Shown here piece after piece: positions 34,646 to 41,835 of a stretch of 64,000 nt of DNA. This stretch comes from Fistulifera solaris (taxonomy: Eukaryota). The notes under the pieces were generated by a model that saw only the letters and a program-made list of their open reading frames with translations, ran no database searches and was not told the DNA's origin. Position numbers and translations under genes: made by a program. Location: assembly GCA_030295235.1 (NCBI GenBank), contig AP026136.1, positions 496,001-560,000 on the forward strand. The letters are read 5' to 3'. Position 1 is the first letter of the stretch; each line of letters starts with the position of its first letter.

Positions 34646-34823
34646 TGTAGCGCGATCTTTCCCTTAATACTTGGAATGTTCAGATTTGTTTGTTGAGACG
34701 CTACTTCTGTTGTTTGTGTCAGCGTGATGATGGGGCAAAATCACGAACAGCCGAATTCAGAAGATTTTCATTGCGAGTATAGCTATTTGAGTAGGTCACC
34801 ATCGTGAGGATTGTGACGAGAAG

Positions 34824-35201
34824 TCTTAAAATCCACAGGTGCCGGAGCCGTCTATGGATTGGGCTTGACAAAATTAACTTGGTGCAAACGGATTGCTGCA
34901 AACGGATTGCTTGTTAAAATTATAAGCTAGTAAATGAAGTTATCCTATTGATATCAATCTTGTTCTTGTCTTCATTGTTCTCATTTTGATTCATGTAGAA
35001 TATGCAGAAGCTGCTGGCATTGTTCTTTGTCAGTAATAGTTAGGTTCTTTCGGCAGCTGTTAGTTCTTTGAATAACGAGGGTTCGAGTTTTGGTAGATTG
35101 CTGTTCGCTTCTCGTTTTCATTATCATGTAATATGTAGTTGCACTTGTCATTCCGTTTATTGTAGTCACGTGCGGGACTGTGCGGGACTGGTTATTCAAC
35201 A
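34824..35201 (-). repeat. 3' LTR
   Basis: Element strand TGTTGAATAACC...GGATTTTAAGA. By eye it differs from the 5' LTR by one substitution and one indel. Internal duplications TGCAAACGGATTGC x2 and GTGCGGGACT x2. Confidence 0.95.
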
Positions 35202-35211
35202 CTCCCTCTCG
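35202..35211 (-). other. Polypurine tract (plus-strand primer)
   Basis: GAGAGGGAG immediately precedes the TG of the 3' LTR on the element strand. Confidence 0.85.
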
Positions 35212-35221
35212 AACTGCGATC

Positions 35222-38200
35222 TTACCATCCGAGAATTGCTTTCCGATGTTTGACGAAAAGGTCGAGTGTGAGCGGCTTTGTCAAGATATCTGCGGTTTGT
35301 TCGAGAGTATCGATCTTGTGAATTGTTATATCTCCACTATCAACGTATGATCGAAAATGGTGCAGTTTGACATTCAAATGTTTCGTTCTTGGTCGAGCCT
35401 TCGGAACTTTTGCTATTTCCAGAGCTCCCGAGTTGTCTTCGAATACTTTGCAATGAACCTTCGGTCTCCATTCTTTTACGTCAAATCCGAGTGATTGCAT
35501 TTCCTTCAAAGTATTCATGATGGGAATTGCATCTCTAAGTGCATAACTCAATCCAGTAAATTCGCTCTCTGTGGAACTCAATGCAATTTCTGTCTGAAGT
35601 TGGCTTTTGTGATGCAATAATATTCCGGCGTAGGTGATGAAAAAATCCGTGTCGGGAGCGAGCTGTATTGCGGTCCTCAAAAGCTATCTCTGGATCCCAA
35701 TTGCCTGCGAAATCGGCGTCAACATGAACTTCCAAGCTTCTAGAAACGTCCGGGTGCAAAATCATTCCTTTGTCTCTTGTTCCTATCAGGTATTTTGTGA
35801 GCCATCTCATTGCATCTCCATGTTCCTTTCTTGGGTCTGACGCGAAGCGCGCATTGATGGACTGCATAAGCGATGTCTGGCCTGGATCCTCTCGTGAGGT
35901 AGTTCATTTTTCCTATGACTGAAGTGTAATGAAAACTTTTGTCAAATGGCGGTGATTTGGGATGTTTCGAAAGTAGCTTTGATGATGCCATTGGAATTTC
36001 CTTTGTTTTAATTTCCTTCTGGTCGAATTTCATGTCTTTGATTATTGAGTCGATAAGATGCGGTTGCTTCAATTCGATTGTTGATTCGTCAATTCTGTTG
36101 ATGTTGACTCCCAGAAAATCCGATAAATCTCCCTCAACTGTAATGTCTAGCTTGATCTGTTTCATCTTTTCAATAATTTCTTCAATCTCTTTCTCATTTG
36201 GACCTCCAAGAATACTGTCGTCGGTATATAGGACATACATCGTGCCCTTGTAGTAAAATACACACTCGTCGTACTCCGATTGCTTGAAACCAATCTCAAA
36301 TAGCTTCTTTCGCAAATAAAGGAACCATGTTCGACTTGCATCCTTTGCTCCATAAACATTCTTGTGGACTTTCAGTACATAATCATCTGGGGATGCTCCG
36401 TGTATTGTATATCCCTTTGGAATGGACAGATAAATTTCTTTGTCGCGTGGCGCTTGAGGAAATGCCTGAACATAATCAAGTTGTTTTGTATGCCAACCAT
36501 GTATGATCACCATTGCAAGTAACAAGCGGATTGAAGTCCAATTAGCGACTGGAGAGTAGGTCAGTTCATAGTCGCGACCATATTTCATCCGTGACCCATC
36601 AATTGTCAGTCGCGCTTTCCACTTTTTGACTTCACGTGTCATAATGTCTCGTTTGCGACGAAGTTGCCACACCGTTGGAAGAATCGTTGCTCCCTCTGGA
36701 ACTTGACTTCTTGGAAATAATGAGAAATTTCCATTTGCCATTTGATCCTCAATTTCGGTATCCATTCCTTTGGAAAACTCCGGCCAATCGGGTTCTTTGC
36801 GAGCTTGATGCAAATACATTGAGTCAGGATCGGCACTTGTCTTAAAAACATAGAATGGATCTGGTGGATTGAGTTTTGCTGAGGCAGTTTGAAGAGTTTC
36901 GTAGGCAAATAATTCCCCTTTGATGGCGGCCGATGATTGACTGAGTTCATTTACAAACATTGCAACCATGATCTCTATTAATCGAGTAACGGGACGGCGT
37001 TGGCGAGTGCTTCGTCTCTCCCTCTGAGATGGTGGTGGCGGTGGATCGGAAAGGGGCTCAGGTTCAGGTTGATGATCGGTGGATGGAACAGTGTCATCAG
37101 GTTGATCGGTGGGCGGTATCGGCAAAGGAGAGAGGTCGGGAATCGGAGAAGTGGGTGAATCCGACGAGGAAGGCGCTGATTGTTGAAGGGTTGTGCTTGG
37201 AGCGACAAGAAAGCCGGCTTTGAGTTGCCATAAACATGTTTTCGCAAGGTCCGGAACAGTTTGGAATTTCGAATCAAATTTGACGTGAAACTGGGGACTG
37301 ACGAGTCCTGTGTCGGGGTTCAGTACCAGGGCGACAGAACGACTGTGTACTGGAGATCGTCCCAAATAAATTCCGAGATGCGAGCGGAGACGCCATTTGT
37401 GAAATATCCGACTTTTTCCTCCTTGGAGCGCGGCATCGAGCACAAAGACTGGGCAACCGAAAGGTTTCCAATGAATTGGATTCGAATGAATCTCCGTGTT
37501 GGTGAAAAGTTGGTAAGGTGTACGGCGCTCAGCGTGTTTCATGTTTGGCATGTGATTGATGGAATCGTTGGCCATTCGTAAAGCGTAAGGCCACAGGTGG
37601 GTAGTGATGGCTTGCGGCCACTTGTGTTGTGCGTCAATTAACATAGCGCGAGTGAGTTCCTGCAGTTGTCGAATGCGGCGTTCAGCTCGTCCATTTTGAT
37701 GATGGGCTCCCACTCCGGCAAAAGAAAGACCTTGACCATTTGTTGCGCAATCGTTGACCCAGGTGTTTGAATTGAAAATTCCGTTATCAGCATGATAGTG
37801 TTTGATCTTCTCAACTCCACAATTGCGAGCGTATTGTTCAAATGCATGCTTTGCTTCCAGAGTCTCAGTCGCACTTTGTGTCTTTTGCAGATGAACATAA
37901 CTCAAGTTTGAATACAGGTCCACGAAGACTGTTGCGTATAGATAGCGCTTCGTTGTCAGAATTCCTGTAAGCTGAGCAATGAAGCCGGGAGTAGGAGAAT
38001 TCATTTGATCCACAGCAACAACTTGTCCAGGGTGAGTAGGTTTTTGAAGCTCTTTACCCTGTTTGGCTGGTTTCGTTCGCCATTGACGCTTGGTTGCTTT
38101 TCCATAAAGACAGGCAGTACATACAGGTGTCGGGCATTTTGCGAGTCGGCGTGGAAGAACGCCTTGCTTTGCTAATTCTTGAAGCTTTTCCATTGGTGCG

Positions 38201-39303
38201 TGTCCATAGAGTCGATGGTAGGTAAGTAACTCTGCTGCTGGAACTGTTTGAGTTGTTGCAGTGTCACTTTCTTGAACCACGGCTTTGTCTGTGTTGCCGT
38301 CAAACTCGAAGTCGACTGTACGGCTTTGGAACGGTGCTGCTCCCTCTGAATCTGCATTTTCTCCCTCTGAAGCGACTGGGGTGTCCGCGTTGGCATCGAA
38401 ACAAAGCGGATCATCGTCTTCGTCGTCAGTAATTGATGCTTTGGTGCAGAAGGCTTCAAAGTTGCGGAAGCCAGGGGCTGAGTAAAAGGTTGCGACGTTT
38501 GAACGAGGATCAATTGGAATTGTCTTCTTGTTGCTGCCCCAATAAAGAATCGCGTGTTTGCTTGTTGTATCACATCCAGAGAGTTTGTGTCTGGTGTATT
38601 TTGCCCAATGTTGCGGTGATAAAAGTCTGACCTTGCCGTCTGGTACGTAATATGAATTTGGAATCGTGAAGGATGTCATCTTGCCCTCATCATTTTCCCA
38701 TGACCATTTCAGAGTTCCTTTCATCACGTTGCTGGTGCGAGTACCACCAAAGCCCTTGATAATCAAATTTGTTTCTTGTAATTCCCCAACAAAGTCCGTC
38801 AGCGACATGGGAGATGCATGCTGAGCATCTATTGTCGACACCCACTGGAACGGAGTCGGTATCAAAAGTGGTGGTAAGTATTTGTGGGATCGCATTTGCA
38901 CTGAAACACATAGCTGTCATCATCAGCACATATCTCCTTTGACGCACTTTTCGCTGTCTCCACCATCTGGCTATTGGATTGCGGAATCGAATGAGCGCGT
39001 GTGAGAAGTGTATGTTGCCTTTCGTGCTGCTTGTTTCCTTTTGTGAAGGATTGCGTGGGACTTGCAGTTTCGTGTATCCATACTGTGTGAATGCGGACCA
39101 GGTAAGTCTGAATTGGACTGCAAACGCGTTGACCAAATGTTTTCAATCGCTTGCTAATGGGTTTCTTTCGAAGTCTCTTAGGAATATAGCAAGTTGCTGA
39201 CGTCATTAAAATGGTCAAAGAACAAACAGTATATCAGGGATGCGGTGAAGATAAGTAGCCAGTCCCAGCTAAAGCTGAGGTACCGCCAGATGGACTTGGT
39301 TAG
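35222..39303 (-). CDS. pol: Copia pol polyprotein (protease, integrase, reverse transcriptase, RNase H)
   Basis: Protease region FDTDSVPVGVDNRCSACIS. Integrase H-H-C-C (YHRLYGH...CTAC) and D-D-E (VAVDQM, HADNG, AERRIR). RT motifs WKARL, LDYVQAF, YGAKDA, LYTDD. RNase H motifs VDADFAG, ALSSTESE, EDN, ADILTK. Several frameshifts. Confidence 0.95.
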
Positions 39304-40561
39304 TCATTCGCTGTCGCTTGCCGTTGTCACTTTCATCCGAGTACTCTTCGTCATTGTCGTCTTGTTCGCTGTCGCTATCGTCAAGGAGTGCAGCAAGAGC
39401 TTTGACAAGTCGCTCTTTCTTTGCTTCAGGCTTCGAGGTTCCCGGTTTTCTAATGTTGGCTTGGCGACAATCAACCATCTTGTGTTTTCCCCACGAAGTT
39501 GTGCTTATCGCACCAGAAGTACTCGCTTTCGACTGTCTTCTGCTTTGGCTCGTCATCCTTGGGAGGTACCGACATCCAGTCTGGCTTTGGAGTGTTTCTG
39601 TTGCGTTGGGGTTTGCCTTTTACCTGGTGCTTTGGCTTGTTTTCGGTCTTTTTCTTGCTTTCCAACTTTTGAAGTTTTGCCTCTAACGTGAGAATCTTTT
39701 TCTTCTTCCGGCGAGGGCGCTCCAGAGAGAAAGCTGTACCAAGGTCTTGTACTTGTTGTCTGCTAGGTTCATAAGGTGATCCGGAGTCATCGGAAGACCC
39801 TCGTGGTAATCTTCTTCTTTCTTCAGGATGTAGTTGACAAAGGTGCGATCGGATGCTGCCTTGTAACCCTTGAAGAGATTTGCAAGAAGATCATTTGTGG
39901 TTTCGCCACGAGCTGCCAATCCTTCCAACAACTGTTTGACTTGCTGATTCATCTTGGTGATGTTGAGCTGGATTTTCGGTAAGTACTGGTCCAAACTGGA
40001 GAGCTGTGTGCGAATGTGTGTGACAGTTGCGTTTGTATCGATGTATGTCTCACGGATGATGACTTTGAACAAGCAAGGGCCACTCGGGATACCGTTAATG
40101 GTATACTGGTCACGCCAGATCGTGATGCGATCAATGGCGGTCGGGCTTAGAGAGGAAATGAGGCAGTTGGCTGCCATGTAGGAATCTTGTGCTGCGCGGG
40201 ACGGAGTACTGATGTACGTCAGCGTGGTCTTGGATATGCTCCAAGGTGATGTCTCCGTAGTTGGAGAGGAGGTTGGTGGTGTTCTGGACGATGGCTTCGA
40301 TATTGTCGGGGATGTTGAAGATCGGCCCCCAACCAAAGTTGCTAGCACGGATGCTAAGTCCTTCAATGAAGGAGCGCATGCGACCAGGGTCGCAGTCGAA
40401 TCGTTCATCTCCAATCTGCTTGGTCGCCATTTCGTGAAAGGCGAGATCCTTCAGCGAGTAGAGAAGTCGATGACTTGGTGGGAGCTCAAGCCGGGCTTAG
40501 AGCAAAGGGAGCTGCGACGGGAGCAGCGATGTTAGGGTCGGCGTTGTTCGCAGTCAGCCAT
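39304..40561 (-). CDS. gag: Copia gag-like protein
   Basis: ATG at 40561 after the leader. Helical capsid-like region (SGPCLFKVII...LFKGYKAASD), basic tract, WCDKH..WGKH....C knuckle and acidic tail. Heavily frameshifted. Confidence 0.8.
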
Positions 40562-40653
40562 TTCGTCAGAACGGCGGTAGTTGTTATAAAGCCGGAGCTT
40601 TATGGTCACTTATAAAGTACGGAGCTTTATAGTCACTTTAAGCAGAGGAAGCG

Positions 40654-41032
40654 TCTTAAAATCCACAGGTGCCGGAGCCGTCTATGGATTGGGCTTGACA
40701 AAATTAACTTGGTGCAAACGGATTGCTGCAAACGGATTGCTTGTTAAAATTATAAGCAAGTAAATGAAGTTATCCTATTGATATCAATCTTGTTCTTGTC
40801 TTCATTGTTCTCATTTTGATTCATGTAGAATATGCAGAAGCTGCTGGCATTGTTCTTTGTCAGTAATAGTTAGGTTCTTTCGGCAGCTGTTAGTTCTTTG
40901 AATAACGAGGGTTCGAAGTTTTGGTAGATTGCTGTTCGCTTCTCGTTTTCATTATCATGTAATATGTAGTTGCACTTGTCATTCCGTTTATTGTAGTCAC
41001 GTGCGGGACTGTGCGGGACTGGTTATTCAACA
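40654..41032 (-). repeat. 5' LTR
   Basis: Near-identical copy of 34824-35201. Confidence 0.95.
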
Positions 41033-41835
41033 GAGAAGTTTACATTTTTTGAGTCCCATGCAAGACTCGCGATCGCGAAGCGATCTTCATCAGGCTTGAC
41101 CACCGTCTCGTATCGGTACTCCTCTAAGATTGACATGTAGGAGCCTTTTTCTCCGAAAGCTACTCCTCTCCACATCCAGATCTCAGTCTTGTCTACAGCT
41201 AACCGCAAAAAGATCGCAGGCGAGGGCACATTGTAGACATAACATGGTGGGCGAGAATACCAACGAAAATATTGACTTTTACGTGTTGCCGTAGTTGATG
41301 ATTCTGTAATGATGTAGGCTAGTTTCAATGCTCAACTCAGAGAGAGTATCTTAATTCAGTCCCGAAAAGAGTATCGAATTCCCAGCATCTCTTTTCACGT
41401 TGTTATCAGTAACCTAGATAATCCATGAAAATCTTTCTTTGCTCAACGCACTGTTGCTGACAAGAGTTTAATAGGAGACCAAATAGAGCATTTCGATGAG
41501 TGGCAAGTCCAGCGTGCGTGCGCTGCGATCAACTTCTAACCTTGCTTTTTCGGGAAGGATGACTGGGTGCTTCTAGGGAAAAGCGGAAAAAATAGCAAAG
41601 TTTGTTGAGCTTCATTATTAATTGCACACGATCTCATTTTGGTCTACCTGCATCATTCTGATCCACTTCAAAGCATACTTATAGACGATCGTACACATAT
41701 GACAACATTCGAGACTCGACAATTCTCCATCTTCATCACATGCATCAAAGACCAAGTGGGAGATTGAAAATTTCTTGTTACGACTCACCACACTAGTAGC
41801 GTTTCTCCAGGAAAAGGATCGTAGCGGCTGCCGCA

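Follow-up and report, generated by a model that had tools for sequence, protein, structure and literature searches.

Expression of pol by reading through the stop codon that ends gag is textbook knowledge for the gammaretroviruses. To our knowledge, control of the Gag:Pol ratio in copia-type elements is known for few models, namely Ty1, which uses a frameshift, copia and plant elements, which use splicing, and Tca2, for which the matter is not settled. Recoding signals in long terminal repeat (LTR) retrotransposons were reportedly treated by Gao et al. in 2003. Here, we describe a stretch of 64,000 nucleotides (contig AP026136.1, positions 496,001 to 560,000), referred to as the window in the following, that carries on its minus strand a Ty1/copia-type LTR retrotransposon whose gag and pol genes are separated by a single UGA stop codon. 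An original prediction for this locus had proposed that Pol is made by programmed readthrough of this stop. The analysis of the junction and its relatives suggests that this is likely the case, although not by all of the means that had been proposed.

Among the described systems, Tca2 (pCal), a Ty1/copia element of Candida albicans, has its gag and pol split by a single UGA that is followed by a possible 3' RNA structure (Forbes et al., 2007; PMC2194720). As described there, Tca2 Pol is translated from the full gag-UGA-pol RNA, and the stop codon must therefore be bypassed. The original prediction, which held that copia elements usually use one open reading frame, splicing or frameshifting, had overlooked this element. 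Type II readthrough signals of viruses are described as UGA-CGG or UGA-CUA to which a 3' stem is added 7-9 nt downstream, and are used at the nsP3/nsP4 junction of alphaviruses and in the replicases of tobra-, peclu-, furo- and pomoviruses, with UGA-UGG occurring in one furovirus (Firth et al., 2011; PMC3159437). In the same account the gag-pol junction of murine leukaemia virus belongs to Type III, with UAG-G and a pseudoknot 8 nt downstream. In diatoms, the CoDi elements (copia of diatoms) of Phaeodactylum and Thalassiosira were reported to occur as haplotype-specific insertions (Maumus et al., 2009; PMC2806351). The main text of that study, its supplement aside, addresses neither the relation of the frames nor the stop context, readthrough or RNA structure, and a literature search for readthrough in diatom copia elements yielded no paper.

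All letters on which the original prediction had relied were found in their places on the minus strand: TGA at 39306-39304, CTA at 39303-39301, CCAAGTCC at 39299-39292, GGACTGG at 39265-39259 and CAGC-TTTA-GCTG at 39277-39266. The junction reads ...GGC AAG CGA CAG CGA ATG ACT..., which in the phase of the proposed stop is AGC GAC AGC GAA TGA CTA ACC AAG, and the frame indeed stays open behind the TGA, for 41 further codons (LTKSIWRYLSFSWDWLLIFTASLIYCLFFDHFNDVSNLLYS) before the next stop. An acidic gag tail had been said to run into the TGA. This holds for the last five codons, ASDSE, which are in the TGA frame, but not for the remaining tail, DDSDSEQDDNDEEYSDESDN, which lies in another frame as assembled because 2 nt are missing near 39322. 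A protein search with the junction region read through in one frame, with X at the stops, identified P0122, a protein of 422 amino acids labelled 'hypothetical protein FisN_3Lu402 [Fistulifera solaris]'. In a frameshift-aware alignment 415 of the 416 aligned codons of the window's gag were identical to this protein, and pieces of gag were also seen by tblastn. The terminus of P0122, ...DESDNEASDSE followed by its stop, fell exactly on 39306-39304 in this alignment. In addition, an acidic tail followed by the stop forms the end of all eight full-length gag relatives (398-436 amino acids). As a near-identical intact gag protein ends at this TGA, stop and frame are far beyond chance, and the TGA at 39306-39304 is, as judged by the alignment, gag's own terminator.

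The reading frame behind the stop appears to be the genuine start of pol. The post-stop peptides of four related loci (L010, L005, L001 and L060) aligned with that of the window from residue 1, with matches such as LTKSIWRYL to VAKRAFRAL or LARQAFRAL and SLIYCLFF..ND to MLIYVSFYVND. The Pol relatives share an N-terminal module in which a hydrophobic stretch is followed by the motif Y[VI]PKS[KR]RW and, after some 100 residues, by FDTDSxPVGIDNRCSACISH. Both the hydrophobic stretch and the basic motif are present in the window between 39303 and 39140, in two frames; altogether the N-terminal parts of its pol occupy three frames, with shifts near 39195 and near 39135 and then, at about 38801, into the main pol frame. 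A near-identical Pol N-terminus was not found when the frame before the protease was searched against longer proteins. From the residue-by-residue alignment, pol is homologous and in the gag frame from the first codon behind the stop. The hydrophobic stretch between the gag stop and the protease looks like a membrane helix, with the very basic Y[VI]PKS[KR]RW next to it (P0008, P0088, P0119 and others).

For a survey of copia junctions in metagenome relatives, 78 metagenome loci were fetched by gag alignment; their hosts are not named, and the loci are phylogenetically related. No gag relatives were found in the genome-contig and viral-contig collections. Gag end and pol match could both be placed in 35 of the 78 loci, and in 31 of these 35 a single stop (30 TGA, 1 TAG) was all that separated gag from a pol in its own frame. 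In the other four (L058, L063, L076 and L077) pol lay in another frame; with short pol frames of about 220-370 codons, these loci appear to be copies in decay and not a sub-lineage that uses frameshifting. A further 24 loci had no downstream pol match, and in 19 the contig ended during the walk onward from the gag match, which in some of them already extended past the stop. Grouping at 85% junction identity turned the 50 loci with a located stop into 41 families, whose in-frame status was judged from the length of the open frame and the tblastn frames. Behind the stop, 30 of the 41 families had an open frame of 100 to 1436 codons, eight reached the contig end before 100 codons and three had a second stop within 100 codons; with three out-of-frame families added, the in-frame layout was found in 30 of 36 informative families. 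The stop was TGA in 38 families, TAG in two and TAA in one, the latter with 10 codons of contig left. The base after TGA was C in 23 families and T in 12, and the codon after the stop was TGG in seven families, CTC, CGG and CTT in five each and CTA in three of the 41. One frame, exactly one stop and an opening from the next codon, as expected for readthrough, were thus found in the window and in its relatives, and the comparison indicates that the in-frame gag-stop-pol layout is conserved in the latter.

Many of the relatives' junctions have the form TGA, 7 nt, GCCCAnnn...nnnTGGGC. In 26 of 40 families, the 45 nt behind the stop ranked among the most stable 5% of all native windows of this length in the respective locus, and in 20 of 40 among the most stable 1%. 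An 11-pair helix that starts 7 nt after the stop had 91.2% of its cells paired in 17 distinct sequences, compared to 29-48% when the 3' side was slid by 1-3 columns. Double-sided changes occurred in 28 cells of this helix as opposed to 1-8 in the slid versions, and its covariation score of 0.413 (at most 0.154 when slid) was reached in none of 500 shuffles. Folding of single hairpins gave z-scores of -3.1 (L011) and -4.0 (L037). The loop of the hairpin carries GCGU in 12 of the 17 aligned sequences (L008-L078 loops, alignment columns 22-26), which may reflect the protein residues Cys-Val, a loop contact or a pseudoknot.

The window behaves differently from these lineages. The stem-loop of the original prediction is possible at -10.4 kcal/mol, but it lies about 4-5 kcal/mol above the minimum, and its pair probabilities do not exceed 0.0055; the minimum-energy fold, at -15.9 kcal/mol, uses other partners. 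Dinucleotide shuffles folded as well as the native sequence in 42 of 200 cases for 54 nt (z -0.79) and in 24 of 200 cases for the 66 nt of the original prediction (z -1.16). When set against 675 native windows of 45 nt from the element, the 45 nt past the stop nevertheless rank within the top 0.9% for stability. A fold that is ordinary against shuffles yet within the top 0.9% natively would therefore owe its stability to local composition. Among the four loci whose post-stop peptides align with the window's, L001 has a stable long hairpin (z -3.0) and L010 has none (z -0.3). With regard to a 3' stem 7-9 nt past the stop, as in Type II signals, the sister lineages have the covarying hairpin at 7 nt; for the window and its nearest relatives no stem is supported, with a z-score of -0.8 for the window and a consensus of -1.37 kcal/mol. 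As far as covariation and folding can tell, the strong hairpin belongs to the sister lineages and not to the lineage of the window, which may rely on context alone or on another structure. Alternatively, the sequence of the window may be wrong in the post-stop stretch.

The copy in the window is rich in indels. Compared to P0122, gag has ten indel places in the frameshift-aware alignment, nine that shift the frame and one lost codon; at least two further frame changes separate the stop from the protease and three fall within pol, which amounts to about 15 indel places in the whole element. According to the original prediction, two nearby single-base indels would have sufficed; instead, 2 nt are lacking just ahead of the stop, and from the stop to the main pol frame the reading frame changes at least three times. 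No intact gag or pol frame exists in the copy as assembled, and the proteins cannot be made from it in this form. The 120 listed Pol relatives read straight through the frame changes of the window at about 35848 and 35640. Contigs from sequencing run X1 carry frame-restoring differences at the same places (GT added at 35848, one base fewer at 35640) and one base fewer at 38801, and within gag they restore the frame at four places (40219, 40436, 40453 and 40492). Between 39093 and 39830, one near-identical X1 contig departs from the window by five letters and ten gaps. Because indels far outnumber substitutions (one amino-acid change compared to ten indel places in 416 codons of gag), most indels of this copy are probably assembly errors. 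A CpG occurs within 4 nt at 11 of 15 approximate indel places in the internal region (35202-40652), compared to 43% of all positions; this hints weakly at long-read errors that recur systematically where CpG is methylated in a silenced repeat. At 40288 in gag, some of the X1 contigs (depth 106/256) have a 6-nt in-frame insertion, CAGGCT on the plus strand, and the X1 sample therefore contains several diverged copies of the family. For users of the assembly this means that it holds many small indels inside repeats.

The boundaries of the element were determined by self-BLAST of the window, which revealed a 380-bp direct repeat with copies at 40653-41032 and 34823-35201 that are identical in 378 of 380 alignment columns and differ by one substitution and one single-base gap. 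The unit between the outer ends of the LTRs (34823-41032, minus strand) measures 6210 bp and is flanked on both sides by a 5-bp duplication, so that the LTR pair and the short target-site duplication of a Ty1/copia LTR retrotransposon are both present. A minus-strand frame of 1058 amino acids (38916-35740) contains the Pfam domains gag_pre-integrs (residues 227-273), SH3_retrovirus (482-550) and RVT_2 (738-976); as these occur in that order, the element is of the Ty1/copia type. With the protease motif at 38866-38807, the order protease, integrase, reverse transcriptase (RVT_2) and RNase H typical of Ty1/copia pol was found, and the C-terminal part of the window's Pol aligned to the ends of the 120 listed relatives. 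Identity to these 120 proteins was 45-53%, the named ones being from Fragilaria crotonensis, Cylindrotheca closterium and Chaetoceros tenuissimus, and one of the listed matches carries the label of a cyanobacterial metagenome-assembled genome. No Pol of more than 53% identity was present among the listed proteins of 581-1852 amino acids. All named relatives taken together, i.e., those from Fistulifera, Fragilaria, Cylindrotheca and Chaetoceros, point to diatoms, and by these matches the host of this young copia-type element is a diatom, with the closest named protein coming from Fistulifera solaris. The coordinates of all features are summarized in Table 1.

Table 1. Features of the retrotransposon and of its gag-pol junction in the window.
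Feature	Position	Strand	Basis
5' LTR, 380 bp	40653..41032	(-)	self-BLAST, alignment
3' LTR, 379 bp	34823..35201	(-)	self-BLAST, alignment
Target-site duplication, 5 bp, TTCTC on the minus strand	41033..41037, second copy 34818-34822	(-)	flank comparison
gag coding region, in frame pieces	39307..40561	(-)	frameshift-aware alignment to P0122, tblastn
Indel places in gag	near 40552, 40497, 40453, 40437, 40220, 39721, 39699, 39527, 39497, 39322	(-)	alignment to P0122
gag stop codon TGA, candidate readthrough site	39304..39306	(-)	stop of P0122 aligned here
CTA, first codon past the stop (UGA-CUA context, Type II as described in PMC3159437)	39301..39303	(-)	letters read directly
Outer stem of the original prediction (39299-39292 with 39265-39259), not favoured	39259..39299	(-)	folding ensemble
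Imperfect hairpin of the minimum-energy fold with 10 bp, two bulges and a UUUA loop, starting 19-20 nt past the stop; any function putative	39258..39287	(-)	folding
Start of pol in the TGA frame: basic/amphipathic LTKSIWRYL, then hydrophobic WDWLLIFTASLIYCLFF	39196..39303	(-)	alignment with post-stop peptides of relatives
Basic motif YIPKRLRKKP... (Y[VI]PKS[KR]RW in relatives), behind the frame change near 39195	39140..39186	(-)	alignment with Pol relatives
Protease motif FDTDSVPVGVDNRCSACISH, third frame; frame change at about 38801 after it	38807..38866	(-)	alignment with Pol relatives
Remainder of pol with integrase, reverse transcriptase and RNase H; the frame changes at about 35848 and 35640	35225..38802	(-)	Pfam, Pol relatives

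Two further observations concern the insertion and its LTRs. One X1 contig (depth 18.8) joins position 34812 to 41033 with 7 letters between and skips the whole element. As this joint consists of the left flank, a single target-site duplication and the right flank, it represents either an empty-site allele or a homeologue, and only one haplotype probably carries the insertion. In addition, each LTR holds, as seen in the LTR alignment, two short tandem duplications on the minus strand (CAGTCCCGCA twice and GCAATCCGTTTGCA twice), which may be repeated regulatory boxes.

Programmed readthrough of the UGA that gives rise to a Gag-Pol fusion is the explanation we regard as likely for this junction. 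Gag ends at the UGA at 39306-39304, and the codon behind it opens pol without a change of frame. At the UGA most ribosomes would terminate and yield Gag, while a small share would decode it, most likely with a near-cognate tRNA, and continue into a Gag-Pol fusion that would later be cut by the protease of the element. In this way the element would set its Gag:Pol ratio high, as murine leukaemia virus does. The signal would consist of a leaky UGA and the C on its 3' side, a favourable neighbour (here in CUA); many related lineages have, in addition, a compact hairpin about 7 nt downstream. Of the original prediction, the true gag TGA, the in-frame pol and a layout that is kept in relatives were borne out; the role of CUA, the particular stem and the count of two indels were not.

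Several points weigh against this explanation. The link between the gag and pol frames in the window copy depends on reading across indels, and as the relatives share ancestry, the counts of families and loci do not represent independent events. UGA-CUA had been proposed as the signal, but although the UGA is kept in 38 of the 41 families, CUA is not conserved, as it occurs in only three. The window fold scored a z of +0.52 for 74 nt and +1.39 for 104 nt against dinucleotide shuffles. The structure shared by the window and its eight nearest relatives amounts to a 6-pair helix (-1.37 kcal/mol), which was rejected as unsupported. Furthermore, 14 of the 40 families have no stable post-stop fold, and the junction of Tca2 alone, as described by Forbes et al., gave no readthrough in Saccharomyces cerevisiae (PMC2194720). 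The Tca2 precedent, where a minor internal promoter was found as well, the families without a stable fold and the lack of a supported 3' structure in the window's own lineage also fit the possibility that the in-frame UGA is real and conserved, but that Pol arises by a non-canonical bypass, by internal initiation or re-initiation past the stop, or from a separate subgenomic transcript. Separate initiation, however, needs neither the gag frame nor an opening at the next codon, and yet both were present in the 31 of 35 loci; the post-stop peptide is conserved from residue 1, and the spacing of 7 nt at which the hairpin of the sister lineages stands is typical of readthrough stimulators. We therefore consider such a route rather improbable. 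Readthrough predicts an in-frame layout with one stop, which the other bypass routes can do without; thus the core of the readthrough explanation is supported, and we infer that readthrough rather than another bypass is the source of Pol.

Splicing would be a further way of arriving at the same products, either by an intron across the stop that is removed from part of the transcripts to give a gag-pol fusion, or by a gag-only RNA as in plant copia elements, and it is described as a strategy of Ty1/copia elements of Arabidopsis (PMC5580714). None of the listed joints in X1 contigs spans the stop, however (34812 to 41033, which skips the whole element, 35783 to 36470, 37064 to 37150 and 38995 to 39074), the codons behind the stop are conserved as protein, and the conserved hairpin at 7 nt suits recoding better, so that splicing appears very unlikely. 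The roughly 15 indel places and the broken frames could also indicate a dead copy in which the TGA and the open stretch are an accident of decay or of assembly error. This is hardly credible, as the intact P0122, which comes from a named genome, has its end at this very TGA, the relatives repeat the layout, and the LTRs are near-identical and flanked by a target-site duplication; moreover, a single amino-acid change next to ten indel places in 416 codons of gag is unlike natural decay. Selenocysteine or a variant code for UGA was set aside, given that TAG stands at the same place in two families and that TGA closes the gag frame of P0122; no search for a selenocysteine insertion sequence (SECIS) was run.

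Beyond the window, it seems on balance somewhat probable that a diatom-wide Ty1/copia clade makes Pol only by UGA readthrough, using Type II contexts (UGA-CUA, UGA-CGG or UGA-UGG) to which most lineages add a covarying hairpin exactly 7 nt downstream. If true, diatoms would have their first defined family of recoding signals, and copia-type elements their first broad readthrough strategy that is backed by structure; the lineage of the window would be a naturally occurring variant whose hairpin has been lost and which depends on context or on a different structure. A large group of diatom elements would show a retrovirus-like solution, one leaky UGA in frame. These elements provide diatom biology with a first candidate recoding element, whose signal, the covarying hairpin at 7 nt, is small and easily tested, and they offer a natural series of junctions with a strong, a weak or no hairpin for gauging which features govern readthrough in a stramenopile. 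For annotation, gag and pol of such elements should be treated as one readthrough unit and not as two genes or a pseudogene.

How does the junction compare with the known systems? Like the CoDi elements, the element of the window appears to be a haplotype-specific insertion. With Tca2 it shares the Ty1/copia type and the gag-UGA-pol arrangement. Tca2, in contrast, is fungal and has a proposed pseudoknot, whereas the diatom-type elements have comparative support and, in sister lineages, a simple covarying hairpin at 7 nt; the likeness drawn here is one of layout. The UGA-CUA context, for which a comparison with alphaviruses had been drawn, is classed as Type II by Firth et al. (PMC3159437), and the window carries the UGA-CUA/CGG feature of this class, which is not fixed in the clade. 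In addition to the window, three families have CUA behind the stop, five have CGG and seven UGG, and the relatives resemble Type II signals also in their covarying stem 7 nt past the stop. The viral stems are described as long-range, with 11-12 or more bp closing loops of about 100 nt (PMC3159437), in contrast to the compact hairpins of the diatom elements with 7-11 bp and loops of 5-12 nt; furthermore, the viral carriers are RNA viruses rather than a retrotransposon, and the window's own lineage has no supported stem. The junction resembles that of murine leukaemia virus in that gag, stop and pol lie in one frame, in the low frequency expected of the Gag-Pol fusion and in a structure about 8 nt past the stop, which here occurs in the relatives at 7 nt. 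It differs in that UGA takes the place of UAG, the relatives have a hairpin instead of a pseudoknot, for which no search was made, and integrase precedes reverse transcriptase in the element, which is of the copia type; the UAG-G of the virus has its counterpart in the TAG-G of two families, as opposed to the UGA that the window shares with 38 of 41 families. The layout as such is already known from gammaretroviruses and from one copia element, Tca2, and it is the covarying hairpin at 7 nt across lineages that would be the most notable part of the diatom junctions.

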